Source: an uncultured Bacteroidales bacterium (GTDB lineage Bacteria; Bacteroidota; Bacteroidia; Bacteroidales; F082). From it: a DNA stretch of 64,000 nucleotides. The translations under genes and the position numbers were made by a program. Positions 42,461 through 61,327 of this stretch are shown here, one piece after another (the first letter of the stretch is position 1; every line of letters begins with the position of its first letter). The notes beneath the pieces are model-generated. The model saw nothing but the letters and a program-made list of their open reading frames with translations. It did no database searches and was not told the DNA's origin. Location of the stretch: NCBI GenBank assembly GCA_947303055.1, contig CAMYXV010000001.1:3961-67960 (forward strand), read 5' to 3'.

Positions 42461-42467
42461 TAAAAAC

Positions 42468-43331: not shown

Positions 43332-43342
43332 ATAATAAGACT

Positions 43343-43951
43343 ATGTATAAACACTTTTTCAAGAGGGTTTTAGATATCCTCATATCAGGTATTGCCTTAT
43401 TGTTAATTGGCTGGTTCTTGATTATTGTCACCATTTTCCTTCACTTTGCGAACAAGGGGGCTGGTGCTTTCTTTTTCCAAGAACGACCGGGTAAGAATGC
43501 CAAGATTTTCAAAGTCATCAAGTTTAAGACCATGACTGATGAACGTGATGAAAATGGTAATTTACTGCCTGATTCACTGCGATTGACAAAAGTTGGGAAA
43601 TTTGTGCGCAGCACGTCTGTTGATGAGTTACCTCAGTTGATCAACGTTTTCAAAGGTGACATGTCGTTGATTGGCCCTCGGCCATTGTTGGTGCAATACC
43701 TGCCATTATATTCTCCAGAGCAGGCACGTCGTCATGAAGTGCGACCGGGCATCAGCGGCTGGGCACAATGTCATGGCCGCAACGCCATCAGCTGGAAAGA
43801 AAAGTTCGCATTAGACGTTTGGTATGTTGACCATTGCACTTTTTGGACAGACATCCGCATTATATTCATCACCATCAAGAACGTGTTACAACGCAAGGAT
43901 ATTGACTTTGACGGTGCTGCTGAATTGAAAGCGTTTGATGGAACGAACTAA
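43343..43951 (+). CDS. undecaprenyl-phosphate sugar-phosphate transferase (bacterial sugar transferase family, initiating enzyme)
   Basis: One N-terminal transmembrane helix, DELPQLINVFKGDMSLIGPRP and RPGISGWAQ. Confidence 0.9.
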   Translation: MYKHFFKRVLDILISGIALLLIGWFLIIVTIFLHFANKGAGAFFFQERPGKNAKIFKVIKFKTMTDERDENGNLLPDSLRLTKVGKFVRSTSVDELPQLINVFKGDMSLIGPRPLLVQYLPLYSPEQARRHEVRPGISGWAQCHGRNAISWKEKFALDVWYVDHCTFWTDIRIIFITIKNVLQRKDIDFDGAAELKAFDGTN

Positions 43952-43974
43952 AGAAATAATTAAACATCAGTAAT

Positions 43975-44892
43975 ATGAAAGGTATAGTATTAGCAGGCGG
44001 CAGTGGTACCCGCCTTTATCCAATTACAAAAGGAGTTAGCAAACAGTTGCTTCCTATTTATGACAAGCCGATGGTGTATTACCCCATCTCGGCCTTGATG
44101 CTGGCGGGCATTCGTGACATCCTCATCATCAGCACGCCTTACGACCTGCCGGGCTTCCGCCGTCTGCTGGGCGACGGCTCGGACTACGGTGTGCATTTCG
44201 AGTATGCCGAGCAGCCTTCACCCGACGGCCTGGCACAGGCATTTATCATCGGTGAGAAGTTCATCGGCAACGACAGCGCTTGCCTGGTTTTAGGCGACAA
44301 CATTTTCTATGGTGCCGGTTTTACCACCCTGCTCCGCAATGCCGTGAAGGATGCCGAGGAGAACAAGAAAGCCACCGTGTTTGGCTACTGGGTGAGTGAC
44401 CCCGAACGTTACGGTGTGGCGGAGTTCGACCGCCAGGGCAACTGCCTCAGCATTGAGGAGAAACCCAAGGAGCCCAAAAGCAACTACGCCGTGGTGGGCC
44501 TCTATTTCTACCCCAACAAGGTGGTGAACGTGGCCAAGACCATCAAGCCCTCTGCCCGTGGCGAACTGGAAATCACCACGGTGAACCAAGAGTTCTTGAA
44601 AGACGGTGAACTGAAAGTCCAAGTCTTTGGCCGTGGCTTCGCATGGCTTGACACGGGTACGCATGATTCGCTTTCAGAGGCATCGACCTTCGTGGAGGTG
44701 ATCGAGAAACGCCAAGGCCTGAAGGTGGCTTGCTTGGAAGGCATCGCCTACCGTAATGGCTGGATCACGGAAGAAAAGATGCGCGAGCTGGCCAAGCCGA
44801 TGCTGAAGAACCAGTATGGGCAGTATCTGCTGAAGGTAATTGAGGAGAAGAAAGCGGAGATAGACTCGGATTCGTTCCGCTACACTGAATAA
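43975..44892 (+). CDS. rfbA: glucose-1-phosphate thymidylyltransferase
   Basis: [26 protein letters not shown], and full RfbA length. Confidence 0.95.
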
Positions 44893-44898
44893 TGGTGG

Positions 44899-45792
44899 GT
44901 GACTATGGCAACAGTTGATGATGTAAGAATCATAGAGCTGCCCAAGTTCTTGGACGCTCGAGGCAACCTTTCGTTTGCTGAGCAATTGAATCATATTCCG
45001 TTTGAGATTAAGCGGACGTATTGGATTTACGATGTGCCCGGTGGTGAAGCCAGAGGTGGACATGCTTTCAGGCAGAACCAGGAAGTGGTGGTTGCCTTAT
45101 CCGGCTCGTTTGACGTGATTGTCGATGACGGCAACCAGCGAAAGACCTTCGCCTTGAACCGTTCCTACTACGGGCTCTATATCCCCGCAGGGCTTTGGCG
45201 TACGATGGAGAATTTTTCCACCAATTCATTGGCTTTGGAGTTTGGATCCATGCATTATGATGTGAACGATTACATCTATGACTATGAGGAATACCTCCAG
45301 CTTCGCAAGGCGATTCCTGAACAGAAACCATTGGTTGCTGTTAACGAACCATCGGCCTCGACTGCGATGCCAGTAAAAAAATACAACGTCTTCGACTGCT
45401 CCATGGTGGAACTCGACCGACACCACAGCGACCGCAAGGGCAACCTCACAGTGGTGGAGAACGGTCAGACCTTGCCCTTTGACGTGAAGCGCGTGTACTA
45501 CCTCTACGACGTGCCAGGTGGCGAGAACCGCGGCTCGCACGCTCATAAAGAATTGAGCCAGCTGATTATTGCTGCTTCTGGCTCTTTCACTGTTACGTTA
45601 GATGACGGTAAATGCAAACGGTCGTTTTTCCTCAATCGTCCTTACCAAGGTTTGTATGTGAAACCAGGAATGTGGCGTGACTTGGAGGACTTCTCCTCGG
45701 GAGCCGTCTGCATGGTGCTGGCCAGCGATGTGTATCTGGCTTCGGATTATATTAGGGATTATCAGGAGTTTTTGGAGTTTAGAAATCAATAA
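44899..45792 (+). CDS. tandem-duplicated FdtA/WxcM-like sugar 3,4-ketoisomerase (two cupin domains)
   Basis: Two copies of the motif set are present. Copy 1: LPKFLDARGNLSFAE...YDVPGGEARGGHAF. Copy 2: LDRHHSDRKGNLTVVE...YDVPGGENRGSHAH. Confidence 0.8.
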   Translation: MTMATVDDVRIIELPKFLDARGNLSFAEQLNHIPFEIKRTYWIYDVPGGEARGGHAFRQNQEVVVALSGSFDVIVDDGNQRKTFALNRSYYGLYIPAGLWRTMENFSTNSLALEFGSMHYDVNDYIYDYEEYLQLRKAIPEQKPLVAVNEPSASTAMPVKKYNVFDCSMVELDRHHSDRKGNLTVVENGQTLPFDVKRVYYLYDVPGGENRGSHAHKELSQLIIAASGSFTVTLDDGKCKRSFFLNRPYQGLYVKPGMWRDLEDFSSGAVCMVLASDVYLASDYIRDYQEFLEFRNQ

Positions 45793-45802
45793 ACATCATA
45801 TT

Positions 45803-47092
45803 ATGTCAGAAAGAAAACGTATTTATCTCTGCCTCGCCCACATGTCGGACGAAGGCCTTGAACAAAAGTATATCAAAGAAGCATTCGACACCAATTGGGT
45901 GGTGCCGCTTGGACCGAACGTTAACGGATTTGAAAAGGACCTCGAGGAATTCGTGGGTCAGAACAAAAGGGTAGTGGCCTTGTCTGCAGGTACTGCTGCT
46001 GTACATCTGGCTTTGATTGCCTGCGGTGTGAAGTCTGGTGATGAAGTGTGCGTGCAGAGCTTCACTTTCTGTGCTTCGTCGCACCCGATTACTTATCTGG
46101 GGGCTACACCAATCTTCATCGATAGCGAGAAGGATACCTGGAATATGGATCCGGAACTGCTGGAAGAGGCCATTAAAGATCGTATTGCCAAGACGGGCAA
46201 GAAGCCAAAAGCGATTGTCCCTGTGGCTTTGTATGGAATGCCTTATCAGATTGATAAGATTATGGCCATTGCTGAGAAGTATGATATTCCAGTTGTCGAG
46301 GATGCTGCCGAGGGCTTCGGTAGCCGCTGGAAAGGTCAGGTACTGGGCACCTTTGGTAAATACGGTGTACTATCGTTCAATGGCAACAAGATGATTACCA
46401 CTTCTGGTGGCGGTGCTCTGGTGACCGCCAACGAGGACGAGTGGCGCGAGATTATGATGTATGCCACGCAGTATCGCGAGAGCTATCCTTATTATCAACA
46501 CGAGAAGATTGGTTTCAACTACCGTATGAGTAACATCTGCGCTGGTATCGGCCGTGGTCAGATGACGGTGGTGAATCAGCACATAGAACACCACAAACAC
46601 GTACAGGCTCTTTACGAGGAGCTGCTGGCTGGCGTGCCCGGCATCGCCGTGCATTCGCAGCCTAAAGGTCACACAGATAGCACAGATAACACAGATAAGG
46701 TTCCTGTCTTCGACAGTAACTATTGGTTATGTACCATAACCCTTGACCCCTTGCTCCGCATCAAAGGTCAGGAGAACGCCTACAAGACCATCGTGACCGG
46801 TGCCGTGGGTGGCGCTGCCGGTGTGATTCATGCCGCTTCGTCAGCTGTTACGAACTGCCAGCCTAACGACAACGTTGAAGCACTCCGCGTCTTCATGGAT
46901 GCCGCTGGCATTGAGGCCCGTCCCGTGTGGAAGCCCATGCACAAGCAGCCAGTCTATAAGAACTGCCCCGCCTATGTCAATGGCGTTTCAGAGGCCATTT
47001 TCAAAGTGGGTATGTGTTTGCCTGCCGGACCGTATGTGAGCGACGAGGATGTGAAGTATATTGTAAGCTGCATCAAAGATGCAATTAAGTAG
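45803..47092 (+). CDS. DegT-family PLP-dependent sugar aminotransferase
   Basis: Start at MSERKRIYLCLAHMS (the track ORF from 45677 overlaps the previous gene). LSFNGNKMITTSGGGAL carries the PLP Lys. Paralogue of the gene starting at 62983. Confidence 0.85.
   Translation: MSERKRIYLCLAHMSDEGLEQKYIKEAFDTNWVVPLGPNVNGFEKDLEEFVGQNKRVVALSAGTAAVHLALIACGVKSGDEVCVQSFTFCASSHPITYLGATPIFIDSEKDTWNMDPELLEEAIKDRIAKTGKKPKAIVPVALYGMPYQIDKIMAIAEKYDIPVVEDAAEGFGSRWKGQVLGTFGKYGVLSFNGNKMITTSGGGALVTANEDEWREIMMYATQYRESYPYYQHEKIGFNYRMSNICAGIGRGQMTVVNQHIEHHKHVQALYEELLAGVPGIAVHSQPKGHTDSTDNTDKVPVFDSNYWLCTITLDPLLRIKGQENAYKTIVTGAVGGAAGVIHAASSAVTNCQPNDNVEALRVFMDAAGIEARPVWKPMHKQPVYKNCPAYVNGVSEAIFKVGMCLPAGPYVSDEDVKYIVSCIKDAIK
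46672..46697 (+). repeat. in-frame 9-nt tandem repeat CACAGATAn x3 inside the aminotransferase gene
   Basis: CACAGATA at 46672, 46681 and 46690, encoding TDSTDNTDK. Confidence 0.8.
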
Positions 47093-47113
47093 CCTTGATA
47101 GTCAGCTGGGAAG

Positions 47114-47614: not shown

Positions 47615-48514
47615 ATGAAAAAGAACAAGCTAGCATACGAACAGGTGATTGATAATCTCAGCAGAGCCGGTGTTGACTACTATTCTTCTGCTGAGTATGA
47701 AATACAAATCCTTAAAAGCGCTTTTGAAAAATGCGATGACTCTTGTCTGTACCCTTATGTCCCTATGAGATTGGTGGCTCTAATGGAAGGCTATTTTCAA
47801 GAGCTTTATTCCAATATCATCGATGCTGATGTTAAGTATAGAAAGAACTTTGCAAAGCTTGTGAAAGATTTGCAGTTTGAGTCACCCATCATTGATTCTT
47901 TTGAGCGGAATACTATCACATTTGGCGAATATGCGTCAATGTTGTTGTCGTGCAACAAACATGAAGATGTACTGACCAATATTTCTACCTTACTTGACAC
48001 TGACAAACTTAAAGAGAAGTTTAAAGATACTAGCATACTGTCAGATGTAAAAGAAGTTTTCTATTATCGACATATATTTTGTCACGAGATTGCCGGTAAC
48101 ATAATATTAGAGCATAGTAAAATCCTGAAAATGATAGACTCTGTATCTGATTTTATGAGAATCGCTGGTGACTTCGTTTCATCAATCTTATATCCCAATG
48201 CTCCCGAATTAACACCTGATATTATTGATGAGGCCATGAGAGACTTTGAGGCAAAAGACAAGGAACTTCGTGAGCTAATAAAATGGTTGAAAGAAAATGT
48301 GGATATTGAATATTTGGGCACTGATTTCAACTTTATGGATGTCTTTGAGGAATATAGGAAAAGACGTACAGAAAAAGTGTGTGAGCAATATGCCGATGGA
48401 ACAATCTATGGCTACATCTATGCCCAATCAATGGCCGAAATAACAGAAGAACTCATAAACGGTTTGAAAAAGAAATATAGGGTTTGGTTAAGGGCATATA
48501 ATTTACCGCACTAA
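47615..48514 (+). CDS. hypothetical protein (299 aa) with a candidate HEPN Rx4H motif
   Basis: All-helical-looking sequence. FYYRHIFCHEIAG contains R-x4-H followed by E. AT-rich composition. Confidence 0.45.
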   Translation: MKKNKLAYEQVIDNLSRAGVDYYSSAEYEIQILKSAFEKCDDSCLYPYVPMRLVALMEGYFQELYSNIIDADVKYRKNFAKLVKDLQFESPIIDSFERNTITFGEYASMLLSCNKHEDVLTNISTLLDTDKLKEKFKDTSILSDVKEVFYYRHIFCHEIAGNIILEHSKILKMIDSVSDFMRIAGDFVSSILYPNAPELTPDIIDEAMRDFEAKDKELRELIKWLKENVDIEYLGTDFNFMDVFEEYRKRRTEKVCEQYADGTIYGYIYAQSMAEITEELINGLKKKYRVWLRAYNLPH

Positions 48515-48793: not shown

Positions 48794-50986
48794 ATGACTA
48801 TGATAATACGCAATGCTGGTGATAAAGATCATGACAAAACGTATTGCGTGTTTGCTATCCGTGTGAATAGAGATGGCTCAACGGGTCAGCGTAAACTGAT
48901 GGCCGATGTGCCGTATTATCTGATGCAAGGATTCTCAATAGACGGTGATACGATAAGGATAGAAAAACATGCGGACACTCTTCTTCGGGACAGCATATTC
49001 AACCAATCATATCAAAATCAAACAACTCGTGCGCATTTGAATTTTAGTGCCATTGTGGGAATGAATGGCTCTGGAAAAAGCACATTAGTTGAATATATGC
49101 TTCGGTTGATTAACAATTTTTCGGCTTCGGTTTTTGGTGAATATAAGAAGAATGTGGCAACAGACAGATTGCATTTTATTGATGGTGTTGATGGCGAGCT
49201 TTATTATTATTCAAAGGGATTGCCGTATTGTTTAGCAGTTAAGAATGACAAGGTTTCCCTATCCCATTACTCATTCAAAAGGATCACTGATGACAATGGT
49301 GCGTTCCTGTTTGAAAGAGATTGTGATTTTTATAATAACCACAGAAGCGGTGACAATGAAAAAAATCATGCTCCTTTTTATGAATCCACCAATCGTGACA
49401 TTAAAAATTTCTTTTACACGTTAGTCTCGAATCACTCTATTTATGCGTATAATGCAAATGATTTTGAAAATGAATGTTGTGATAATTTAGTAGAACGTCG
49501 TTTTGACAAGGAGTACTATACGAGTCATCAACTTGAGATGCCTGAAGAGATAAATACAAAGGAGTATTCGGTAGAAGAAAGATGTTGGCTGCATGGTCTT
49601 TTTCATAAGAACGATGGGTATCAGATTCCTTTGGTTCTTAATCCATTCAGAAAAGAAGGTTGTATTGACATCAACAATGAAAACAAACTGGCTAAAGAAA
49701 GGCTTGTGTCGCTAATTGTCAGTCCGGGCAGTGAGTTTCGCAGGATTAACGGCCATTTGGAAGTTGTCAGCCTCACTTTGAAGAGGAAGACTGATACATA
49801 CGACCGAAACTATATAAACACAAAACTTAAGGCTGGCATTGACAACGATGAAGACTATGAGGCGATAAAATCCATTATCTTTGAAGAATGGCTTGATGTT
49901 TTGAATGTTGACAAAGACTTTGGTAAAGGGAAACGGTATTATGAAGATACAAAGAATTATGTTTGTTACAAAACTTTGAAGATAGCGAAACAATACCGCC
50001 AATACCAATTCTTTTTCGATAGGTTTCAAAAGAAAGCATGGAAACTTGTTGGTGATGATATACAACAATTGATAGAAAGATTATTACTTGATTCATCTCA
50101 TATTACAGGGAAACTGTTCCAAGCGCTTAACTATTTGATTTTTGACATTTATAATGATGAGGCTATTGAGCAACCAATGCCACTCGATTCAATTAAAATG
50201 CAAAAAAAGGCAGATGGTTCAAAGATTGAATATCCACAAACATTTCTAAGCGCATCGAAGGTTAAACTGATACCATCCCCAATTTTTAATGTCACCATTG
50301 ATTTGAAAGATTCAAATGATGGTAGGGTTGTTGATTTCGAGACTTTAAGTTCTGGAGAAAGGCAATTAACCTATGCGGTTAGTTCACTCCTATACCATTT
50401 GAACAATATTGATTCGGTGGCCGAAGACAATAATGGATTAAGGCTTGTTTACAAGAAGGTAAACATAATTCTTGAGGAAGTTGAGCTATATTTTCACCCC
50501 GAATTACAAAAGCAACTTGTAAAATACATCATTGATGGCGTTGGACAACTCAATTTTATGTCTATCCAAGGTATCAATTTCATTTTGGTTACACATTCGC
50601 CATTTGTTCTGTCAGACATTCCGTCAACCAATATCCTGGCATTGACTAAGGATGGTATGGTAAGCGATGGTATTCGTTCGTTTGGGTCTAATATACACGA
50701 CATGCTGAAGGATAGCTTCTTCCTTCAAACAGGATGGATTGGTGATTTTGCTCAGGATCATATACATCGACTGGTTGAGCAATTGCAGGAGAATCATTTA
50801 GATAAAGAAGAATGTGAAAAACTGCATAGAAAGATTATGCTGATTGACGAACCTGTAATGCGGACACTGCTTCTTGAAAAATATCATGATGTATGTTCTG
50901 AACCGATGGCCGAACAGCGCATTGCTGAACTTGAGAAAGAATTGAAAGAATTAAAGGTAGATAGACCGGATGTGGAAGTTAAATAA
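48794..50986 (+). CDS. ABC/SMC-like AAA ATPase (Septu PtuA-like), 730 aa
   Basis: Walker A GMNGSGKST, signature-like LSSGERQLTYAVSSLLYHL, Walker B NIILEEVELYFHPELQ and H-loop ILVTHSPFVLSDIP. Confidence 0.75.
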   Translation: MTMIIRNAGDKDHDKTYCVFAIRVNRDGSTGQRKLMADVPYYLMQGFSIDGDTIRIEKHADTLLRDSIFNQSYQNQTTRAHLNFSAIVGMNGSGKSTLVEYMLRLINNFSASVFGEYKKNVATDRLHFIDGVDGELYYYSKGLPYCLAVKNDKVSLSHYSFKRITDDNGAFLFERDCDFYNNHRSGDNEKNHAPFYESTNRDIKNFFYTLVSNHSIYAYNANDFENECCDNLVERRFDKEYYTSHQLEMPEEINTKEYSVEERCWLHGLFHKNDGYQIPLVLNPFRKEGCIDINNENKLAKERLVSLIVSPGSEFRRINGHLEVVSLTLKRKTDTYDRNYINTKLKAGIDNDEDYEAIKSIIFEEWLDVLNVDKDFGKGKRYYEDTKNYVCYKTLKIAKQYRQYQFFFDRFQKKAWKLVGDDIQQLIERLLLDSSHITGKLFQALNYLIFDIYNDEAIEQPMPLDSIKMQKKADGSKIEYPQTFLSASKVKLIPSPIFNVTIDLKDSNDGRVVDFETLSSGERQLTYAVSSLLYHLNNIDSVAEDNNGLRLVYKKVNIILEEVELYFHPELQKQLVKYIIDGVGQLNFMSIQGINFILVTHSPFVLSDIPSTNILALTKDGMVSDGIRSFGSNIHDMLKDSFFLQTGWIGDFAQDHIHRLVEQLQENHLDKEECEKLHRKIMLIDEPVMRTLLLEKYHDVCSEPMAEQRIAELEKELKELKVDRPDVEVK

Positions 50987-51989
50987 AGTTGGTGGCTCGA
51001 TTCTGAAACAATATACACAAGAGTTGCTGGCCGATCTTAAAAAAGGGATAACAGAGAAACTATTGCCATCAGAGGTAAGTGTTTTGATTCCCAATTACGG
51101 GACATCTGTTGAAGATTTGTCGGTTTTAATAGATTTATTAACTGCAGAGCCACAACAGCTGATTGCGCTAAACACAGCAATCATGTCGCAACTTGTTTCA
51201 GGTTATACTGAAGCGGATTTGCTAGCGTATCAGAAAGCTAAAATAAAGAAAAACAAACAGTCTTCTGACATAAATCTTATCAATCAATACGAAGATGTAT
51301 TAGCGCGGCTGAAAGAAGCCTTTGATTACAAGGGTAATATAACAAACAATCCCAATAGGGCGTACCGTTTGACCGAGATGAAAGGCTCAAATGTTTGTAC
51401 ATACTGTAATCGGCAATACATCTTCACCGTAAACAAACCAAGAAACAGAAGTCTTAGGCATATTGTAAGGCCCGAACTGGATCATTGGTTTTGTCAAGAA
51501 TTATTTCCGCTACTTTCTTTGTCATTCTATAATCTTATTCCGAGTTGTCATATTTGCAATAGCACAGCAAAAGGAAGCGCTGTATTTAGTTTGTCAACAC
51601 ACATTCACCCATACATTCAGCACAATCCAAACCCTAACATATCTTTTAAGCCAGTGCCATCAACTTTATATCCTTCGCATATTGGAGTAAAGATTGACAG
51701 ACGACAGGGCTCTCGAGAAGATGCAACGATTAAGGCTTTTGCGCTGGATGAGATTTACGATTTACATGGACATTTGGAAGTTGAAGAACTTTTTAAATTC
51801 AATAATACATACAGTACAGGATATTTGAAGATAGTGTTTAAGGATTTGCTTAATGAATTCTGTCCGACTTTAACAAAAGCCGAAGTCTATCGGATGCTGT
51901 TCGGAACAGAATTGGACCCGAAAAGATTCGGAGAACGACCGATGAGCAAGTTGAAATATGACATATTGAAGTATCTTAAGGTAATTTGA
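50970..51989 (+). CDS. HNH endonuclease-family protein (Septu PtuB-like), 339 aa
   Basis: CTYCNRQY...RPELDHWFCQELFPLLSLSFYNLIPSCHICNSTAKG (CxxC...DH...N...CxxCN). It overlaps the upstream ATPase gene by 17 nt. Confidence 0.75.
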   Translation: MWKLNKVGGSILKQYTQELLADLKKGITEKLLPSEVSVLIPNYGTSVEDLSVLIDLLTAEPQQLIALNTAIMSQLVSGYTEADLLAYQKAKIKKNKQSSDINLINQYEDVLARLKEAFDYKGNITNNPNRAYRLTEMKGSNVCTYCNRQYIFTVNKPRNRSLRHIVRPELDHWFCQELFPLLSLSFYNLIPSCHICNSTAKGSAVFSLSTHIHPYIQHNPNPNISFKPVPSTLYPSHIGVKIDRRQGSREDATIKAFALDEIYDLHGHLEVEELFKFNNTYSTGYLKIVFKDLLNEFCPTLTKAEVYRMLFGTELDPKRFGERPMSKLKYDILKYLKVI

Positions 51990-51993
51990 TATA

Positions 51994-54900
51994 ATGACCA
52001 AACAAATGGAAGAAAGAGTAATCAATCAATTTGGTGTAAAACCCATATATATAGACAAGAACGAAGGGAAAATCCACATTGACAATAACTATGTGGAGGA
52101 ACCTTCTTTTGCCTTTAAGAATGGGTCATACGAGTTGCTTGGCTATACTCCAACCATTCAACCGTCCATACATAGGCCGGAAGTTAATCAAATAATAAAT
52201 TGGATAGAGAGGGATGCTTCTACCGACCAATCAGCCAGGATAGCGTTGCTTTATGGAAAGGCTGGTATTGGTAAGTCGGTGGTTATGCATGACGTTTTGG
52301 TTGCTTTGAATGATAATCCGGAGTACCTTGTTTATGGATTGAAGTCGGACCAGGTGGAGTTTGTGGATACGGATGACCTTGGTCGTAAAATACACTTGGC
52401 GCAACCCATTGATGTTGCCATTAGTGAGATGGCTCAGAAACATAAGCGAGTGGTTGTGCTTATTGATCAAATTGACGCTTTATCTTTATCGTTATCCTCA
52501 AATCGCGCTCCTTTACGTTCGGTGCTTAAACTGATAGGACAGATAAAAAATATACCACATGTAAGAGTTGTTATTTCGTGCCGTCCATATGACTTGGAGT
52601 ATGATCCGCTGCTTGATGAATTGCGGATAAAAAACAAATGGGAATTAAAGGAATTCACGCCAAATCAAGTTACCCAAATTCTACATGAAAACAATTGTCT
52701 AGAACGGGTGAGTGATAATTTGATGCGTTTTCTGGGGAATCCCCTCAACTTGTTCCTATTCTTAAAGGTTAAGCCCAACGAACAACTGACCGACTCGCTG
52801 TCAACTGATTTGTTGTACCATCAGTTGTGGAGGAAATATGTGACCGATGACAGTGTTCGCAAAGTGAATAAAGATAGGCTGTTGACATTGCTTGATGCTA
52901 TAGTGTCGGAAATGTACAAACGTCAGGAACTTTCGTTACACATTAGGGCTTTTGAAACAGAATACGATGCGGAGTTAAGATACCTTTTCACCAACGAACT
53001 ACTTCTGGTAACAAAAAATGGGCATATTCAGTTCTTTCACCAGACGTTGTTTGATTATGTCTATGCAAGAAGGTTTACTGAGCATGGATATGATTTGCTT
53101 GAAGGGCTGAAATCGCAACACCAAGGTCTATTCTCAAGGGCGGCGGTGAAAAGCATTTTGACTTTCCTCCGTGAGCAAGACCCGGCTAAATATATTGATG
53201 TAATAAACCAGTTGCTTTATGCTAAAAACGAGTATGGCAAGCCCGTTTATCGCTATCATCTGAAATCGCTTGTGTTGAGCAATATGGCCTTTTTTGATGA
53301 GCCTTTAAAGGAGGAAACAAATCTTATTGCCAAAAAAATATTTGACGATAAGGTATATATGGATGTGATTTTCGAATCGGTCCATACAGTCAACTGGTTT
53401 GATGTGGTATGGCAAACAATTAACAATAGAGGTGGTTGGAAATCGTTAAGTACAGACTATAAGGAAAAAGTAATGCTGATGTGCCAGAGAACACTTTGGT
53501 CTGATGCTGCGGTTGTGCTTGATAGAGTTGAGAGGTCATTGAATTGTAATAACGAAGCGGATTGCAAATACATCGGCAATTTGATTCAGTATTATGATTT
53601 GCGCTGCGACAGCAAAAAACTCATAGCTTTTTACAATAGACTAGTCAAGACACGAAATCCACTGGAATATACACATCTTTTAAAAAATATTCTGAAGGAA
53701 GATCCTGAATTTGTATGTCAGGAGTTGAAAGAGAATATTAGGCTTCAGTTACAGGAGAAGGAAACAGATAGCTTTCATCGCATTAAATTAAGCCATGAAA
53801 CTGAAATGCTCTATCATGAGTTGTTGCAAAAACACCATAAACGAGCCATACAACTCTTGATTGATTCGTTGACTCTTGTTTATGAATCAACGAAATATGA
53901 AATAGAAGGCTCCGATATATATAATTCATTAGAGTTTTTTACTTTCCAAAGGACATCAGGCGGAAATTTCGGAACCAAGTTTTCAGAGGATGCTGTAAAC
54001 ATTATTCTTGATGATTTTACCCAAAATGCTGATAGCGATCTCACCAAACGGTATCTTTCAGAATTTAGCTCAAGCAAACATGAAGGGTTTGTGTTTATTG
54101 CATTATTTGTATATGCATCGTGCCCGAACCTGTATAAGGATGAGTTTTGTAAGCTTGTTGTAAGCAGGCAGGTGCTGTCTAACGCCCCTACTTGGGTGGA
54201 ATATCAAGCTGTGGAAGCTTTAAAGGTAATATTCCCATTGTTGTCGGGTACTCAGAAGATTGCTGTCATTGATAGGATTCTTGCCATTGAAGATAATGGC
54301 GAAAAGAGGCTGTATCCTAAGGAGATGAGAGCGGAGAGGGTGGAATATCTTCATCCTATTCTTGATATTGATATACACAAAGGTAAAGCTCTTGAGGTTA
54401 TACCAATTGGCGAGCTGAGGAAACTTTCGTGGACAGCCTATCAGGAGCGCCAAAGAATTGATAGGAAGTTTAATAGCAGGCGTTTGGAAAATGTTAAGCC
54501 GTCAAGTTTTTCAGTCCATTCGGGTTGGAGTTCCCTAACTGTTGAGCAAGGTGTTAAAATGAGTTGTAAAACTTGGTACAACTCGATGCTTAAGTATAAC
54601 ACGAATGCCCATCATGAATGGAATAAACCCTCATTGACAGGTCAATGTGAATTATTCAGAGAGGTGGTGAGCCGCAATCCTGATAAGTATTTAGAACTAA
54701 TTGACAAGATAATCCAAGATGACGAGATTTTGTTGGCCTATCCAGAGGCAGGTATGCGTGGGCTGATTGATGCCAACAGGATAGCAGAGGCGGAACATGT
54801 GCTGCAAGGGATTCTTGGAGTAATTGGCAATGATGTTAATTCAGAAAAAAGGGGCTTTAGCATACATTCTTTCCTCTTTGCCATCAATGATATGATAAAG

Positions 54901-55941
54901 GGCGATACTATGCCTGAAAGCGTATTCAGATTATTGTGTAATACGCTTGTCAACGCCAAGGAACCCAAGGATGACATACATAAAGGAGAAAAGGACGTTT
55001 ATAATGTCGGCATCAATCAGGCACGGGGTAATGCCGGATATATGTTGGTTGAATGTGCCAAAAACACACAACACAAGGATGAGGTTTTTTCGACAATAGA
55101 ACAAATTGCAGAGACGGCATCGGTATATACAAGGGCTGCAATATTGTTGAATATGGCCGCACTAAATTTCTTGGATCAAAAAAGGAATGTAGTGTTGTTC
55201 AAGAAACTCTTGCACGACTATGATCCAAGGTTGATGTCAATGCCGGTTCATAATTACAATCCTTTGGTCTATTTCATCAACTATGCGGCTGATGATTTGA
55301 TAGATTTCTTTAACCATGCGGCAAATTGTCCCGATTGCTATCGTGAGCAGGTTGTTATATTGTGGTTGGCATGGTCGCACAATAATCATGATGAAAGGTT
55401 TAAAACTTTGCTTGATACAATGTGCGAAAACAGTCAAGAAGCAAGAATTTCATTGTTACATTTCTTGAGTACGTTGGGAAATAAAGCTGATGAAGATGCG
55501 TCTGCTTTCGTGTTACGTTTCTTTGATGCTCGGTTTGATTCAATGGAAATGGGAGATGCTTGTGATGACCTGTTCCACAATCTTGATTCATGGCCAGAAG
55601 AATTGCAGTTCCAGATAGCAGATGCATTTGTGACTTCTCCATTGAGTTCTCACAAGACAAATTCGTTCATTGGCTACTTGGCCGGATACGCAATAAAAGA
55701 CCCTGTCCAAACACTGAAATGGTTGGAACAAATCATACATGACAATGTTCCAGATGATTACTTTGTATGGAATAAAGTCATCGATGTAATCATACAATCC
55801 TACAATGGCATTAAGTCATTCAACGACAGCGCTTATCAAGATACTTTGGAGCATGCCCTTGATATGATAGATGGTGCCATGCTGAACCCTAGTAGGAAAT
55901 ACCTGGTTTCCAATTTCATCAACAAACTTGACAATGAATAA
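51994..55941 (+). CDS. NACHT-like STAND P-loop NTPase with a long helical-repeat C-terminus, 1315 aa
   Basis: Walker A LLYGKAGIGKSVVM, Walker B VVVLIDQIDAL, and the NACHT-type VVISCRPYDLEY motif. About 1000 aa of helical sequence follow. It starts 4 nt after the HNH gene. Confidence 0.75.
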   Translation: MTKQMEERVINQFGVKPIYIDKNEGKIHIDNNYVEEPSFAFKNGSYELLGYTPTIQPSIHRPEVNQIINWIERDASTDQSARIALLYGKAGIGKSVVMHDVLVALNDNPEYLVYGLKSDQVEFVDTDDLGRKIHLAQPIDVAISEMAQKHKRVVVLIDQIDALSLSLSSNRAPLRSVLKLIGQIKNIPHVRVVISCRPYDLEYDPLLDELRIKNKWELKEFTPNQVTQILHENNCLERVSDNLMRFLGNPLNLFLFLKVKPNEQLTDSLSTDLLYHQLWRKYVTDDSVRKVNKDRLLTLLDAIVSEMYKRQELSLHIRAFETEYDAELRYLFTNELLLVTKNGHIQFFHQTLFDYVYARRFTEHGYDLLEGLKSQHQGLFSRAAVKSILTFLREQDPAKYIDVINQLLYAKNEYGKPVYRYHLKSLVLSNMAFFDEPLKEETNLIAKKIFDDKVYMDVIFESVHTVNWFDVVWQTINNRGGWKSLSTDYKEKVMLMCQRTLWSDAAVVLDRVERSLNCNNEADCKYIGNLIQYYDLRCDSKKLIAFYNRLVKTRNPLEYTHLLKNILKEDPEFVCQELKENIRLQLQEKETDSFHRIKLSHETEMLYHELLQKHHKRAIQLLIDSLTLVYESTKYEIEGSDIYNSLEFFTFQRTSGGNFGTKFSEDAVNIILDDFTQNADSDLTKRYLSEFSSSKHEGFVFIALFVYASCPNLYKDEFCKLVVSRQVLSNAPTWVEYQAVEALKVIFPLLSGTQKIAVIDRILAIEDNGEKRLYPKEMRAERVEYLHPILDIDIHKGKALEVIPIGELRKLSWTAYQERQRIDRKFNSRRLENVKPSSFSVHSGWSSLTVEQGVKMSCKTWYNSMLKYNTNAHHEWNKPSLTGQCELFREVVSRNPDKYLELIDKIIQDDEILLAYPEAGMRGLIDANRIAEAEHVLQGILGVIGNDVNSEKRGFSIHSFLFAINDMIKGDTMPESVFRLLCNTLVNAKEPKDDIHKGEKDVYNVGINQARGNAGYMLVECAKNTQHKDEVFSTIEQIAETASVYTRAAILLNMAALNFLDQKRNVVLFKKLLHDYDPRLMSMPVHNYNPLVYFINYAADDLIDFFNHAANCPDCYREQVVILWLAWSHNNHDERFKTLLDTMCENSQEARISLLHFLSTLGNKADEDASAFVLRFFDARFDSMEMGDACDDLFHNLDSWPEELQFQIADAFVTSPLSSHKTNSFIGYLAGYAIKDPVQTLKWLEQIIHDNVPDDYFVWNKVIDVIIQSYNGIKSFNDSAYQDTLEHALDMIDGAMLNPSRKYLVSNFINKLDNE

Positions 55942-57154
55942 GGCGTATGAGTTGGAACAACTCCGACAATTGTTGATGAGTCCGGGATTAAAGTCGGGTC
56001 TTTATCTGCTTGATACAGATCTTTCTGATGAAGATATAGAGGCTTTTATAAAACATCAGGGCTTCTCGTCTTATGTGAAAGAATCCCTTTTTCCTTCAAT
56101 AGAGGGGTCTGCATTCGAACTTTTTGTAATAGGATTAAGTTACAAATGTAATGATAAGGTAATAGACGGCCTACGAGGTCAGCTTTTTACGGCAGAGGGG
56201 AAAAGGAAGGAAATAATCATATATAGTATGTTTATACAGATGATACAAACACTTTTCCCATCAGAGAAGTCTGTTTTACAGGTTGTGGGTGAGATGGACT
56301 TGTCAATGATTTGTCATGAGGATTTATGTTTGATAAACGAAGCTCTAGGTCACAATAGTGAGGTTGTTCTATTAATAAGCAAAAACAAGGGAGCTTTTTC
56401 GCAAAAGTGTGATCCTATAATAAATAGAGTTTCTTTTAAAGAAGAAAAAAAATACATATTTATGGAAAATAGATTGGACAAGGTGCACATTTCATACAAA
56501 CACGATGATGAACACAAAGATGTGTTAGAGGCTATAAAAAGAGGGTTGGATAAAAACAAAATCCCATATTCAATAGACGAATATGATATTCTTTATCGCG
56601 ACAATATTGAAGATTACGAAAAAGAGATAGGATTATCAGGAAGAGTTATTATGTTTGTAATACCATCATATCTGAAGTCGCTAGCCTGTATGTTTGAGAT
56701 GACACAAATGTTTAAAAATGGAAATGTTAGAGAACGACTATTCCCTGTAGTTGATATGAAAGGTATACGTCGAGACGGAGATGGGCTTAAAGAGATAAAA
56801 GATTATTGGCATAATGAAAAATGTAGAAAGTCTGAACAAATAAAGACAGAACCAGGTGGTTCGGAATTTATTCTCAAAGAAATCCAAAAAATCGATGAAA
56901 TTATCAATACTATGAATAAATTGTGGGATTTCTTGATTAATGAGAATACGGGTGATTATAAAAAGTTAATTGAAAACGATGCAGCATTGCTGATGGAGGA
57001 ACTAAAGAGATCGTTGCCTCAAGTCTCCGCTCCGATTGATAATGTTTTTGTTCCATCTGGTGATACTAAGCCAACCGAATATCAAACAGTTAATCAATAT
57101 GGTGAGAAATCTATCTATGTTCAGAATAATTCTGGGAACATTATTATAAACTGA
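55928..57154 (+). CDS. TIR-like domain protein (408 aa) with an unknown N-terminal domain
   Basis: KVHISYKHDDEHKDVLEAIKRGLDKNKIPYSID ... VIMFVIPSYLKSLACMFEMTQMF. It overlaps the NTPase gene by 14 nt. Confidence 0.7.
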   Translation: MTMNKAYELEQLRQLLMSPGLKSGLYLLDTDLSDEDIEAFIKHQGFSSYVKESLFPSIEGSAFELFVIGLSYKCNDKVIDGLRGQLFTAEGKRKEIIIYSMFIQMIQTLFPSEKSVLQVVGEMDLSMICHEDLCLINEALGHNSEVVLLISKNKGAFSQKCDPIINRVSFKEEKKYIFMENRLDKVHISYKHDDEHKDVLEAIKRGLDKNKIPYSIDEYDILYRDNIEDYEKEIGLSGRVIMFVIPSYLKSLACMFEMTQMFKNGNVRERLFPVVDMKGIRRDGDGLKEIKDYWHNEKCRKSEQIKTEPGGSEFILKEIQKIDEIINTMNKLWDFLINENTGDYKKLIENDAALLMEELKRSLPQVSAPIDNVFVPSGDTKPTEYQTVNQYGEKSIYVQNNSGNIIIN

Positions 57155-57408: not shown

Positions 57409-58380
57409 ATGGCGGTGCAAAATTACAAAAAAATCATGACATACCCGATAGAAATCAAAGGAAAGACAAAAAAGCAAGTCACGAAGCTGAACCTTTCTGG
57501 TTGTAAATTAACTTCTTTCCCTGAAAACATATTTGAATATACCAACCTTACAAAGCTGGTTTTGAGCAACAATAGGATTAAGGTTATCCCAGCGGATATA
57601 CTGAAATTGAAGAAGCTCAAAATGCTTGATTTATCGAACAACGAAATAAAAGTCTTGCATAGTGCTGTATTCAAACTACCGAAATTGAAGATTCCGAATG
57701 TTTATGGAAACCAAATAAAAAAGTTCCCTAAACAGGTGTTTGAATCACATTTGGAAAAGATAATTGTTGGGAAAAACCCAATGGAAAACGAAGAAATAGA
57801 GAAAATAAGTTTGCTTTGTGAGGTAGTCGCAGATAAGAACCAATTCAGTTCTTCAACGATAAAAGTAGAAGAATCAAACAAGGGAGAAGTTAAAGTGGAA
57901 GATATGAAAAAAGACAAAAATACTGAGCAGAAACACAGCATTTTTATTAGTTATTCGCATAAGGATATGGAGTGGTTGGGTAGAGTAAAAACCCACTTAA
58001 AGCCACTGGCAAGATATTATAGCATTGACGAGTGGGATGACCAAAAGTTGAGGACAAGCGATAAGTGGAAAGAAGAAATAACAAAGGCTTTAAACAATGC
58101 TACGATAGCTATATTGTTGTTTTCTCCTGATTTTATGGCTTCTGATTTTATCGTCAATAACGAACTACAGCCTTTGCTCGATAATGCCAAAAGTGGTGGG
58201 GTGAGGATTATGCCTGTATTTGTAAGGCCGTGTGCAATGTTTGAAGAGAGTGGCCTTTCGGATTATCAGGCACCAAGCGGTAAGGAAAGGACATTAATTG
58301 AAATGAATGAAGGTGAAATTGACAGGACGTTGATGAAATTGGTTGAAGATATAAAACATTTTATCAATAAGAATAAATAA
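57409..58380 (+). CDS. leucine-rich-repeat + TIR domain protein (323 aa)
   Basis: LRR units (LNLSGCKLTSFPENIF, LTKLVLSNNRIKVIP, LKMLDLSNNEIKVL). TIR core HSIFISYSHKDMEWLGRVKTHLKPL ... IAILLFSPDFMASDFIVNNELQPLL. Confidence 0.85.
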   Translation: MAVQNYKKIMTYPIEIKGKTKKQVTKLNLSGCKLTSFPENIFEYTNLTKLVLSNNRIKVIPADILKLKKLKMLDLSNNEIKVLHSAVFKLPKLKIPNVYGNQIKKFPKQVFESHLEKIIVGKNPMENEEIEKISLLCEVVADKNQFSSSTIKVEESNKGEVKVEDMKKDKNTEQKHSIFISYSHKDMEWLGRVKTHLKPLARYYSIDEWDDQKLRTSDKWKEEITKALNNATIAILLFSPDFMASDFIVNNELQPLLDNAKSGGVRIMPVFVRPCAMFEESGLSDYQAPSGKERTLIEMNEGEIDRTLMKLVEDIKHFINKNK

Positions 58381-58412: not shown

Positions 58413-59450
58413 ATGAAGAACATACTTGTGACTGGTGGTGCCGGGTTTATCGGCTCGAACTTGATAAAGCGTCTTTTCGCTGACTTGAAGGGCGCAACGA
58501 TTGTGAACATCGATAATATGAATGCCTATTACGATGTCAGTTTGAAAGAGTATCGCTTGAAGGAACTTGATGCGATGGTTCCCGAAGGGATAAACTATAA
58601 GTTTGTGAAAGGCTCAATTGCTGACAAGGCTTTGGTGGATAAACTCTTTGAGGACTATAAGTTCGATGTGGTGGTGAACCTTGCAGCCCAAGCTGGAGTT
58701 CGCTATAGCATCGAGAACCCTGACGTGTATATTGAAAGCAACATCATTGGTTTCTACAACATCCTCGAAGCCTGCCGCCACAACCCCGTGGAACATCTTG
58801 TGTATGCATCGTCATCCAGCGTGTATGGCGGCAACAAGAAGGTGCCGTTTGCGGTGGAGGACAGGGTGGACAACCCCGTTTCGCTCTATGCCGCCACCAA
58901 GAAGAGCAACGAGCTGTTTGCCCATTGCTACTCGAAGCTTTACAACATCCCATCAACTGGCCTTCGTTTCTTCACCGTGTATGGCCCTGCCGGAAGGCCC
59001 GACATGGCCTACTTCGGTTTCACCAACAAGCTGCTGCGTGGCGAAACTATCCAGATCTACAACTACGGCAACTGCCGCCGCGACTTCACCTACGTGGACG
59101 ACATTGTGGAAGGCATAGTGCGCGTGATGGCGAAAGCCCCTGAGAAACGCAATGGCGAAGACGGCCTGCCTCTGGCTCCATACGCGGTTTACAACATTGG
59201 TGGCGGCCAGCCGGAGAACCTGCTGGACTTTGTGCAGACGTTGCAAGAGGAGCTTTTGAGAGCTGGTGTCCTACCGCAGGACTATGACTTCGAAGCCCAC
59301 AAGCAGCTGGTGCCTATGCAGCCTGGTGATGTGCCGACCACGTATGCAGATGCTACGGCTTTGGAACGGGATTTCGGGTTTACTCCAAAGATTACGCTGA
59401 GAGAAGGATTGCGGAAGTTTGCGGAGTGGTATAAGGCTTACTACAAATAG
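58413..59450 (+). CDS. NAD-dependent nucleotide-sugar epimerase (UDP-glucuronate 4-epimerase-like)
   Basis: VTGGAGFIGSNL and YAATKKSNE (YxxxK). Extended SDR length. Confidence 0.9.
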   Translation: MKNILVTGGAGFIGSNLIKRLFADLKGATIVNIDNMNAYYDVSLKEYRLKELDAMVPEGINYKFVKGSIADKALVDKLFEDYKFDVVVNLAAQAGVRYSIENPDVYIESNIIGFYNILEACRHNPVEHLVYASSSSVYGGNKKVPFAVEDRVDNPVSLYAATKKSNELFAHCYSKLYNIPSTGLRFFTVYGPAGRPDMAYFGFTNKLLRGETIQIYNYGNCRRDFTYVDDIVEGIVRVMAKAPEKRNGEDGLPLAPYAVYNIGGGQPENLLDFVQTLQEELLRAGVLPQDYDFEAHKQLVPMQPGDVPTTYADATALERDFGFTPKITLREGLRKFAEWYKAYYK

Positions 59451-59512: not shown

Positions 59513-60235
59513 ATGTTGCCAATAAAAGAATTGACACCTGTAGAAAAGGAAATTGATGTATTGTTGGGGAAGTCGGCTTTCTACCTCCAGACCTATCGTG
59601 CGATTGATGCATTGAATATGTTGCAACAGGCACGGGAAATGGCAGAAACAAATGAAGTGAATAGTCAGATAAGAGCTGTCATCTATAGAAATATGGGGCA
59701 AGCCCAGTTTCAGTCGGGAAAATTCGACGATGCGATGAGCAATTTTATTCTCAGCTATGAAACCTTTGAAGATGAAAACGACAAAGCGGCAGCAGCAGGA
59801 TTGATCGCCGATTATTACCTGCAGGCTGGGAAGTGCGAGGAAGCCCATGGATATGCTAACAAGGCTTTAGGTTTGGCTAAAGCTCCCGAACTGATGGCAC
59901 ACCCATACCAGATTATGGGTGGCATAGCTATTGAAGAGGGAGACTATCCTAAAGCATTGGAATTAATGAACAAGGCTGCGGAAAAGGCAGAAGAGGCTCA
60001 TTGTATAACCGATCTGGCCATGATTATCATGGATATTTCGGTTATTTTTGTGAAGATGGGAAAACTGGAGACGGCTCTTAGTGAGATGTTCCGGGCGGAA
60101 CGCTATGTGAAGGAATGTAGGAATTGGGATTTGTATTTGCGCTGTGCCATCAGACGGGCTAAGGTTTTATACAAGATGGGACGAGACGAAGAGGCTAAAA
60201 AACTCGTATGCGCATTGGAGGAACATAAGCGATAG
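59513..60235 (+). CDS. tetratricopeptide-repeat protein (240 aa)
   Basis: Repeated 34-aa helical units (YRNMGQAQFQSGKFDDAMSNF, IADYYLQAGKCEEAHGYANKAL, MGGIAIEEGDYPKALELMNKA). Confidence 0.65.
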   Translation: MLPIKELTPVEKEIDVLLGKSAFYLQTYRAIDALNMLQQAREMAETNEVNSQIRAVIYRNMGQAQFQSGKFDDAMSNFILSYETFEDENDKAAAAGLIADYYLQAGKCEEAHGYANKALGLAKAPELMAHPYQIMGGIAIEEGDYPKALELMNKAAEKAEEAHCITDLAMIIMDISVIFVKMGKLETALSEMFRAERYVKECRNWDLYLRCAIRRAKVLYKMGRDEEAKKLVCALEEHKR

Positions 60236-60238
60236 AAG

Positions 60239-61327
60239 ATGGGTAAACTGATGTTCAGTGCAGCGGAAATAAACGCGCTCCCTACCATTTTGGACGTTGT
60301 GGAGCAACTATCTGTCGTGGAGAATCAAATGGCGCTTAGAACGTCGTCAATCATACCGCCCATGCAGTTTTTTGACGAAGGCCGCTACAGTTTTGTGTCG
60401 GATTCCCATAATCACAATATTGTACGCCTGATGCCAACGTCACAAACGCCATTTCTATTCTTTCGCGGGCAAAGCCGGTATCATGATCCATGTTATCCTA
60501 CATTATACAGAGGGGAAAAGGAAGGAGAGCTGGCGTCCGAAGAGGATGTGGCAAGCAATCGCATCAAAATATGTGAATTCTCTTTTTTGTTGGGCACACA
60601 TCCTGTTTTTCGCGAAGTAGCGCTTAATACCCATGTGGATATGGTGGCATTGGCTCAACACTATGGGCTGTCAACGGAGTATCTGGATATTACCAACAGT
60701 AAGTGGGTGGCAGCTTTCTTTGCCTCAACTCGTTATGAAGGTGACACGGATTCATATTGCCCTGTAGGGAGAGACTATGCTGAAGGATATGGTGTGATTT
60801 ATGTTGCGAAAGATGTTGTGGATCAATTTTCGGATGCTTTTTTTGAGAAGAACGAGGTGATCGGTTATCAGTATTTCGAGCGCCCCTCAAAACAGTCGTC
60901 ATTTGGATTTAAGCTGAATAAAGGTGAGGATTTCAATCAGCTGCCTTATTTTGAAAAAGTGTTTTTTAGGCACGATATAGAGGCCTCAAGCATTGTGTAC
61001 AATATGGCATATCGTCAAAATCGGTATGTGCCAAGAGACGAGCTTTCGAAACTGGCGCGTATCATAGCTGATAGTAATGAGGTGACAAGACAAGCATTGT
61101 TTAAGTGTTGGCAGACCTATTATCAAGATAAGGATCTCGTTTATTTGGATAAGGTGTGTGCAAATAAAGGATGGAAGATTCGCGAGGATACCAAGCCGAT
61201 AGCGAAGTTTGACGAGGCAGTTTTGGCTGACGATTGGAAAAAATGGAATGAATTTGGCCGTGAAAACCTGAAATCACGTATTCTACCGCTTATTGCAGTG
61301 ACCAGCGTCCCATATGAAAATGAATAG
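60239..61327 (+). CDS. FRG-domain protein (362 aa)
   Basis: FFRGQSRYHDPCYPTLYRG and ALAQHYGLSTEYLDITNSKWVAAFFA. It starts 3 nt after the TPR gene stop. Confidence 0.8.
   Translation: MGKLMFSAAEINALPTILDVVEQLSVVENQMALRTSSIIPPMQFFDEGRYSFVSDSHNHNIVRLMPTSQTPFLFFRGQSRYHDPCYPTLYRGEKEGELASEEDVASNRIKICEFSFLLGTHPVFREVALNTHVDMVALAQHYGLSTEYLDITNSKWVAAFFASTRYEGDTDSYCPVGRDYAEGYGVIYVAKDVVDQFSDAFFEKNEVIGYQYFERPSKQSSFGFKLNKGEDFNQLPYFEKVFFRHDIEASSIVYNMAYRQNRYVPRDELSKLARIIADSNEVTRQALFKCWQTYYQDKDLVYLDKVCANKGWKIREDTKPIAKFDEAVLADDWKKWNEFGRENLKSRILPLIAVTSVPYENE

Follow-up and report, generated by a model that had tools for sequence, protein, structure and literature searches.

The stretch of DNA analyzed here, 64,000 nucleotides from an uncultured Bacteroidales bacterium (GenBank assembly GCA_947303055.1, contig CAMYXV010000001.1, positions 3,961 to 67,960 of the forward strand; hereafter the window), encodes a NACHT-type STAND NTPase of the NLR-like kind (hereafter the NLR) and, directly after it, a TIR-domain protein, and the two share a 22-residue peptide that stands at the beginning of the former and at the very end of the latter. 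We consider it probable that these peptides are copies of one signaling motif which couples the NACHT sensor to effectors encoded by neighboring genes through an amyloid-type mechanism. The two parts of this proposal differ in strength: on the evidence of the sequences the motif copies very likely bind each other directly, and by analogy with known systems an amyloid-type templating is somewhat favored over a complex of finite size. The features on which the argument rests are as follows.

51994..55941, + strand: NACHT-type STAND NTPase (NLR-like) of 1315 amino acids (aa), from the open reading frame (ORF) and the Pfam NACHT match
51997..52083, + strand: N-terminal motif copy, NLR residues 2-30, with its core at 52018-52083 (residues 9-30)
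52240..52689, + strand: NACHT NTPase domain, residues 83-232 (PF05729, E = 1.4e-8; Walker A GKAGIGKS)
55934..55941, + strand: 8-bp overlap of the TIR start with the NLR stop, ATGAATAA, the genes abutting or overlapping likewise in related loci
55934..57154, + strand: TIR effector protein of 406 aa, from the ORF, its TIR_2 domain and 307 homologues
56483..56752, + strand: TIR_2 domain, residues 186-275 (PF13676, E = 3.9e-9)
57023..57064, + strand: variable linker rich in Pro/Ser/Thr/Gly between the helical region and the motif, with a predicted local distance difference test score (pLDDT) of ~40 and no secondary structure
57065..57151, + strand: C-terminal motif copy, formed by the final 29 residues of the TIR protein, with its core at 57086-57151

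Residues 9-30 of the NLR read VINQFGVKPIYIDKNEGKIHID and the final 22 residues of the TIR protein read TVNQYGEKSIYVQNNSGNIIIN, which is TIVNQYGEKSIYVQNNSGNIIIN minus its second letter. A first-pass annotation of the window had noticed this shared peptide, described an ungapped alignment with ten identities and placed both copies at protein termini outside the catalytic domains. All of this could be reproduced: nucleotides 52018-52083 and 57086-57151 translate as it claimed, the ungapped alignment holds 10/22 identities with a BLOSUM62 score of 57, and both copies fall in low-pLDDT tails beyond the folded domains of AlphaFold2 (AF2) models. The similarity also reaches further upstream, with NLR residues 2-30 matching the 29 residues in which the TIR protein ends (TK..E..VNQ..., 29 aligned), and one single diagonal holds all nine best 22-mer pairings of the two proteins. 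When whole proteins were shuffled the best 22-mer score was 33.2 +/- 3.5 and a score of at least 57 was reached in 0/300 shuffles, while shuffles limited to 40 residues at the terminus of either protein reached 57 in 1/5000. The resemblance between the two peptides is far beyond chance. The DNA segments that encode the motif are identical at 40/66 nucleotides and third codon positions agree at 9/22, as expected at random; on these figures, and on the diverged codons of a Bacteroides hominis locus described below, a DNA repeat or gene conversion was rejected as the source of the similarity.

The NLR is laid out as N-terminal motif, NACHT domain and a C-terminal region of ~900 aa without a domain match, which is presumed to be the sensor. 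Its PF05729 score of 35.2 bits lies above the cut-off of 26.7, and the Walker A residues G88 K89 G91 G93 K94 S95 are invariant in the family alignment. With this domain, the Walker A motif and the large C-terminal region the protein is a NACHT-clade STAND NTPase, and an anti-phage role may be predicted for it. In the AF2 model of residues 1-420 the NTPase domain is well folded, and residues 1-30 have a pLDDT of 34-53, with a low-confidence hairpin drawn at 18-23/26-33.

For the TIR gene the most likely start is the ATG at 55934 rather than the TTG at 55928, which gives a product of 406 aa like those of its homologues, and the 8-bp overlap suggests co-transcription and translational coupling of the two genes. 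From its N-terminus the protein comprises an alpha/beta domain of residues 1-167, the TIR domain, a helical region at 282-360, a disordered linker and the C-terminal motif. Its AF2 model has a mean pLDDT of 78 and shows the alpha/beta domain, the TIR domain and the helical region followed by a tail, residues 364-406, at a pLDDT of ~40 and without secondary structure. The TIR part of the model gives Foldseek matches to the plant TIRs RPS4, RUN1, and RPP1 (TM ~0.6). Among homologues C252 M253 x E255 M256 is invariant (406-aa numbering), a C-M-x-E-M segment which, with E255, we take to be the catalytic-Glu motif of NADase TIRs, equivalent to the Glu of C-L-x-E-L in plants. The protein thus combines a TIR fold with a conserved glutamate of the catalytic type, and is a putative NADase with a predicted function in anti-phage defense. 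Residues 1-167 (window 55934-56434) form a confident alpha/beta fold (pLDDT ~90) that has no Pfam match. A search of PDB folds with the model of the TIR protein recovered the TIR domain alone, and an AAA+-like fold for the N-terminal domain was set aside as it had low-TM matches only, which we do not trust. Two short TIR effectors from related loci (L001, L015) have no N-terminal domain, and residues 1-167 are therefore dispensable for the motif-TIR unit.

Both copies of the peptide are conserved. The TIR protein has 307 detectable homologues, the best 120 of which are 47-99% identical and ~400-407 aa long (Prevotella pallens and Alloprevotella are the named sources among them), and ~110 of these 120 end in R.V.QNGEKSVYIENNxGxIxIN. 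The linker just before the motif varies freely among the TIR homologues while the motif stays conserved, with Q388 and G390 invariant and N399, G401, and I405 nearly so in the family alignment. For the NLR 589 homologues were detectable; the best 120 are 62-100% identical, and ~115 of them begin with M..R.VNQ[FYN]G.KSIYIEKNEG.IYVG. Compared as family consensus sequences, FRTVTQNGEKSVYIENNTGTIIIN against TVNQFGEKSIYIEKNEGQIYVGNA, the two sides are alike at 13/21 positions, more than the pair in the window. The common pattern, R-x-[VI]-x-Q-x-G-[ED]-K-S-[IV]-Y-[IV]-E-x-N-x-G-x-I-x-[IV], spans 22-24 residues, of which Q6, G8, N17, and G19 are nearly invariant, and Ile or Val alternates at columns 12, 14, 21, and 23. 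Judged from its residues, it reads as a strand (R.V.Q), a Gly turn, a strand (KS[IV]Y[IV]E), an N.G turn and a last strand (.I.I).

Each side of the pair can be detected from the other. From species genomes we collected 51 loci surrounding NLR relatives, and from metagenomes 80 surrounding TIR relatives, the first set amounting to 9,463 six-frame ORFs and the full set to 132 sources, 1.7 Mb and 16,915 ORFs. A hidden Markov model (HMM) built from TIR C-termini alone matches NLR N-termini (E = 8e-5 in the window, down to 6e-8 elsewhere), and one built from NLR N-termini alone matches effector C-termini (E = 3.4e-6 for the window TIR, down to 3e-8); no unrelated ORF in the first set fell below an E of ~0.05 in either search. 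Aligned as profiles with hhalign, the TIR and NLR sides match with a probability of 98.4% (E = 1e-14). A joint HMM found 209 matches at E <= 0.01 in the full set, comprising 85 long ORFs of NLR type in which the motif lies close to the N-terminus, 100 C-termini of shorter ORFs and 24 others, namely 21 downstream effectors with an internal motif, two truncated NLR ORFs and one short second effector. Wherever the sequence of a related locus reaches far enough downstream, a gene ending in the motif directly adjoins or overlaps the NLR gene at its 3' end. No model in Pfam, PADLOC, or NCBIfam covers the motif.

Two groups of NLRs carry the motif behind an extension. In a subfamily of ~1414-1434 aa, still paired with tagged TIR proteins, a ~125-residue hydrophobic, transmembrane-like helical extension precedes the motif and makes it internal (L012 at 9614-13927, L014, L019, L057, L058, L061, L064, L116; P0153, P0184, P0189, P0190 and others). 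A distant branch with 33% identity (L020, L021, L039) has a ~190-aa Gln/Leu-rich, coiled-coil-like extension before a diverged motif, TNVNQDGEIALYVGQNLGSIKIN, which lies within residues ~150-215 of the NLR ORFs, and the TIR partners of these NLRs end in a matching diverged motif, SVTQNGNTNFNINNNYGTIKIG. The internal position in some relatives implies that the motif does not need a free terminus. In distant NLR homologues that lack the motif there are N-terminal extensions instead, among them a fused Mrr-type nuclease (L028) that represents an “all-in-one” counterpart.

The partners also vary together. In a comparison of 60 unique pairs, real partners were more alike in their motifs than permuted ones (identity 0.475 vs. 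0.455 +/- 0.006, p = 7e-4; phylogeny uncorrected), while side-specific flavors persist, with E[KR]NEG.IYVG in the NLR and ENN.G.I.IN in the effector. More telling than the permutation test are discrete variants that are matched between the partners of a given locus, which were found in at least six independent lineages, as listed here.

L031 (Bacteroides hominis): RTINIS in both partners
L093-L130 (a human-gut clade): Phe at column 5 in both partners
L039: matched variant GIIN
L020: matched variant G[ST]IKI
L052: matched variant KPVY
L133: matched variant GDIHI
L135: QYG in all three of sensor, TIR and membrane mini-protein

In the B. hominis locus the six residues of RTINIS are shared although not one of the six codons is identical (0/6) and no third position agrees (0/6), which indicates selection on the protein and not a recent gene conversion. 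Several proposals of the first-pass annotation can be judged at this point. Its scan for the terminal motif in adjacent gene pairs, once carried out, returned pairs or triplets at all loci where the sequence was long enough, and orthologous pairs do keep the peptide. The proposed homotypic adaptor that joins a trans-encoded TIR to a sensor NTPase gains support from conservation, pairing and the matched variants, and the idea that this adaptor explains why the NTPase lacks a fused effector fits the motif-less homologues, in which N-terminal extensions such as the Mrr-type nuclease take its place.

The motif extends well beyond this type of locus and behaves as a module. A motif-only profile of 30 positions was searched against 1.84 billion representative proteins (E <= 1e-3) and matched 102 of them, with the motif C-terminal in 65, N-terminal in 26 and internal in 11; with 91 terminal matches, the motif does not occur at the background frequency by which the first-pass annotation had thought its proposal might fall. 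The N-terminal carriers are NACHT and NB-ARC-TPR NTPases. The C-terminal carriers include several TIR architectures, proteins with one or two transmembrane helices (18 cases), and combinations in which the motif follows EAD1, EAD11, EAD11 with two transmembrane helices, or LRR-Roc-COR-EAD1, and in the internal carriers it precedes a PLD domain. Named hosts are Prevotella pallens, Porphyromonas pasteri, Bacteroides hominis, Tannerella, and Ignavibacteriota. In four loci of unrelated architecture (L132-L135) the motif pairing is kept in either gene order, often with two tagged effectors per NTPase.

Effectors are equally varied among the related loci. One TIR protein continues for ~95 aa after the motif (L008), two others carry a C-terminal PLD domain (P0007, P0113), and the B. 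hominis locus encodes a 60-residue protein made up of one transmembrane helix and the motif. In L012 the second effector is a ~225-aa domain without assignment followed by the motif; in L002 and many metagenome loci this same domain is followed by an internal motif and a PLD domain (Pfam PLDc_2). Many sister loci have a third gene of this kind, in which a ~220-aa N-domain (EEFYQDEGWP...) leads to the motif and then to a PLD-like nuclease domain (L002 at 15139-16335; L055, L056, L068, L073, L081, L088, L091; P0331), and in L012, L061, L066, L070 and others the EEFYQDEGWP-type N-domain ends in the motif without PLD. Small proteins made up only of EAD1 or EAD11 and the motif, some with two transmembrane helices, as well as an LRR-Roc-COR-EAD1 protein with the motif at its end, were seen among P0262, P0293, P0270, P0313, P0278, P0297, L132 (4257-4994), and L134.

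In fungi and mammals, NLRs are known to signal to cell-death effectors in an amyloid-type manner, and TIR enzymes require self-association. At rest, both motif copies in the window pair would be disordered tails beyond the folded domains. On detection of an invader by the C-terminal region of the NLR the NACHT modules would oligomerize, and the N-terminal motifs thereby clustered could fold cooperatively into a stacked beta-arch, an amyloid-like seed. Templated by this seed, the TIR protein's C-terminal motif would adopt the same fold and polymerize, and the clustered TIR domains, most likely NADases, would turn active, with death or arrest of the infected cell as the outcome. The tag would also recruit, in sister loci, the PLD-domain protein and small membrane proteins, which would allow one sensor to fire several effectors. 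In bacteria, amyloid signaling of this type was predicted in filamentous species, where bacterial amyloid signaling sequence (BASS) motifs of ~25 residues are common to effector C-termini and the N-termini of adjacent NB-ARC/NACHT proteins (Dyrka et al., 2020; bioRxiv 10.1101/2020.01.06.895854), and its working in phage defense has so far been shown in one E. coli system (bioRxiv 10.1101/2024.11.07.622273).

The main rival to this mechanism, in our view an unlikely one, accepts the homotypic adaptor and makes its contact a finite, stoichiometric beta-hairpin or beta-augmentation with no open-ended templating or prion-like amplification; one effector tail per protomer of the NLR oligomer, or a resting heterodimer that holds the TIR inactive, would be examples. 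It agrees with the simple hairpin that AF2 draws in the NLR copy, and there are several points that weigh in its favor or, more generally, against an amyloid-type coupling. The side-specific flavors are kept over long distances, which would suit a heterotypic interface with two roles, and the conserved E, K, and E are unusual for in-register stacking. Internal positions are tolerated, both behind the hydrophobic extension of one NLR subfamily and before PLD in the third gene. The permutation test of co-variation ignores phylogeny and its effect is small. With regard to BASS, the gene order here is NLR to effector whereas pairs of the 2020 type mostly run from effector to sensor, the motif keeps Lys (column 10) and two Glu although BASS as a class is reported to be Lys-depleted, and HMMs of the BASS classes found no significant match among the 16,915 locus ORFs, the HMM of cluster C09 (which we equate with BASS6 since its set has 111 members) giving E = 1.7-17. 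However, the length of the motif, its conserved G, N, and Q, its alternating Ile/Val and its position in a low-confidence tail behind a linker are hallmarks of BASS and fungal motifs, and all such motifs tested to date formed amyloid (bioRxiv 10.1101/2020.01.06.895854; bioRxiv 10.1101/2024.11.07.622273). The profile similarity to BASS6 is weak but specific. Moreover, a single tag lets one sensor serve two or three effectors of different build, which is easier by a templated polymer than by fixed sites, and it is on these grounds that we prefer templating to a finite contact.

The two remaining explanations would dispense with contact between the copies altogether. The peptides might be a common tag that some third factor recognizes, for instance a protease, a chaperone or a membrane-targeting or secretion machinery, and their terminal position in both proteins and the many small membrane proteins among the carriers would be in line with this. 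We hold it to be very improbable, as partner-specific matched variants are unexpected with a conserved reader, the pairs lack a conserved third gene beside them when architectures are compared, and the polarity, N-terminal on the sensor and C-terminal on the effector, is that of signaling motifs. Short peptides rich in N, I, K, and G in an AT-rich genome also invite the suspicion of chance, of Asn-Ile-rich low complexity, or of a functionless leftover from recent duplication or gene conversion. This we regard as refuted. The shuffle tests and the rarity and terminal placement of the motif among 1.84 billion proteins speak against chance, as does its conservation, next to a varying linker, in homologues whose identity elsewhere is just 47-60%; duplication or conversion is contradicted by the low DNA identity and random third positions of the window copies and by the B. 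hominis codons, which all differ under identical residues. An amyloid-type motif shared by sensor and effector remains the explanation we favor.

The NLR-TIR pair belongs to a small defense island that was seemingly inserted in a polysaccharide locus, with the following neighbors.

36000-47100: capsular/O-antigen genes (sugar transferase, nucleotidyl transferase, FdtA, DegT aminotransferase, KAS III-like, pyruvyl transferase)
47615-48514: ORF of 299 aa at the island's upstream edge, without a Pfam or PADLOC match
48794-51989: Septu-like PDC-M62 A/B pair (PADLOC; PDC-M62A ATPase, E = 5e-44; PDC-M62B HNH-like, E = 3e-48)
57409-58380: LRR and TIR protein (ThsB-like TIR; PADLOC, E = 2.5e-17), directly downstream of the tagged TIR gene
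58413-59450: NAD-dependent epimerase gene on the far side of the island
59513-61327: TPR protein of 240 aa and, at a distance of 4 nt, FRG-domain protein of 362 aa, after the epimerase

The stop of the Septu-like pair lies 4 nt before the NLR start, and the four defense genes form a tight co-directional array. In related loci the island neighbors are not conserved next to the NLR-TIR pair. The Septu-like pair was considered as a part of the system and rejected as it is unlinked to the NLR in other loci, which makes it a neighbor; the LRR-TIR gene was likewise rejected, having no motif and not being conserved beside the pair elsewhere. The TPR and FRG genes may be another small defense module.

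If the proposed mechanism is correct, the principle of amyloid signaling would extend to another phylum, one that is dominant in the human gut and mouth, its effector would be an enzyme (TIR) with clustering-dependent activation, and a single tag would couple one sensor to several different effectors. The motif also offers a rule for annotation, by which a terminal QxGxKS[IV]Y[IV]ExNxGxIxI flags the partner genes of effector-less STAND NTPases, and a compact handle of 24 residues for experiments and engineering. As far as the searched literature shows, the motif family, its phylum, its use with multiple effectors and its attachment to EAD adaptors seem to be without an earlier description.

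Among known systems the closest resemblance is to the BASS and fungal motifs (HET-s/HRAM, sigma, PP). The architecture of the window pair is that of fungal HET-S/NWD2. As in these families, a stretch of ~20-25 residues is found at the C-terminus of the effector and the N-terminus of the NLR, in adjacent and often overlapping genes; G, N, and Q are conserved among alternating hydrophobic residues, and a flexible linker separates the folded domain from the motif. Both also occur on TIR and other non-pore-forming effectors and have “all-in-one” relatives with fused effectors. The effectors of BASS are mainly Bell-domain proteins, occasionally TIR2, CHAT or a hydrolase (bioRxiv 10.1101/2020.01.06.895854). 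On these likenesses of sequence and layout the motif may be filed as BASS-type. It differs from BASS in its hosts, which are unicellular Bacteroidales and Ignavibacteriota instead of filamentous Actinobacteria and Cyanobacteria, and, unlike BASS1-10, it is found on several tagged effectors per NLR and fused to EAD1/EAD11 adaptors.

The comparison with individual BASS classes was based on the sets in the supplement of PMC8086366, with eight class HMMs built from the validation subset and that of C09 from 70 full-set sequences; the single BASS10 example was excluded. Core words of the motif (YIEKN, YIENN, KSIYI, KSVYV, YVENN, QNGEK, KSIYV, KSVYI, YVEKN, YIERN, KSLYI, EKNEG) are absent from all BASS1-10 and unclassified BASS files of that supplement and present only in negative-set proteins. 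Of the classes BASS6 is the nearest. Among locus ORFs the top matches of the C09 HMM, at the E-values given above, included L002, L001 and the window TIR motif, and 13 of the top 15 HMM matches among BASS sequences belong to C09. With hhalign, the combined and TIR-side profiles reached 46-54% against C09/BASS6 (P ~1-2e-4, 20-24 ungapped columns) and the NLR side 27%, while all other BASS classes stayed at or below 4.5%. The BASS6/C09 consensus, ..ASGERS[IV]A[IV]GGN.SG.[IV].TGD, may be set beside ..QNGEKS[IV]Y[IV]ENN.G.I.IN; in most C09 members the second turn is one residue longer and the end is TGD rather than I.IN. The C09 proteins come from different phyla and have mostly Bell-domain effectors. 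Membership in BASS6 was rejected, the similarity falling short of significance by the C09 HMM, and from its sequence the motif is possibly a distant relative of BASS6 and no demonstrable member of any described family.

In function the best model is the E. coli Bab/Agp system (BASS11), in which abortive infection proceeds via such a motif (Ibarlosa et al., 2024; bioRxiv 10.1101/2024.11.07.622273), because it is the only case in which amyloid signaling was shown to drive phage defense. There too the motif is located at the C-terminus of a small membrane-active effector and at the N-terminus of a large sensor, within a defense island of a unicellular bacterium, and BASS11 has also been reported with TIR, EAD7, NACHT, and NB-ARC (bioRxiv 10.1101/2024.11.07.622273). 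The Bab/Agp sensor is, however, built as TPR-GreA/B-C-PIN and is not a STAND NTPase. By the residue numbers in the text of that paper, on which this comparison rests, the residues named for BASS11 (I87-G88-S89-V90, Q92, D99-N100, four glycines; Agp N12) misfit the register of our motif, and no Bab-like (MEPIS...) or Agp-like proteins were among the matches of the motif profile in the 1.84 billion representatives.

The first-pass annotation had drawn its analogy to the effector-associated or death-like adaptor domains of bacteria, and this holds for the functional logic but not for the kind of element. Like EAD1-11 and the bacterial Death-like domains (Kaur, Burroughs, Iyer, and Aravind, 2020/2021; PMC8195603), the motif would serve as a homotypic adaptor on a regulatory NTPase and on interchangeable effectors, in the same N- and C-terminal slots. 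The EADs are folded helical domains of ~60-90 residues, whereas this motif is beta-prone and has 22-24 residues. Its closest class is that of the amyloid signaling motifs (BASS/HET-s) and not the helical EADs; Pfam gave no EAD profile match in the NLR or TIR protein of the window. The occurrence of the motif and of EAD1 or EAD11 in one polypeptide shows the motif to be a module separate from the EADs, and the EAD1/EAD11-motif proteins, together with LRR-Roc-COR-EAD1-motif, suggest a bridge between the EAD adaptor network and the motif. Overall, we put forward, as a tentative view that falls a little short of an even call, that the motif is a further BASS-type family and distant kin of BASS6, which acts as a general effector-recruitment tag of STAND-NTPase defense in Bacteroidota and Ignavibacteriota (gut and oral Prevotella, Porphyromonas, Bacteroides, and Tannerella), with prion-like templating from one activated NACHT sensor turning on TIR NADases together with, in sister loci, PLD nucleases and membrane-disrupting mini-proteins, and that it is tied into the EAD network by the bridging EAD1-motif and EAD11-motif proteins.

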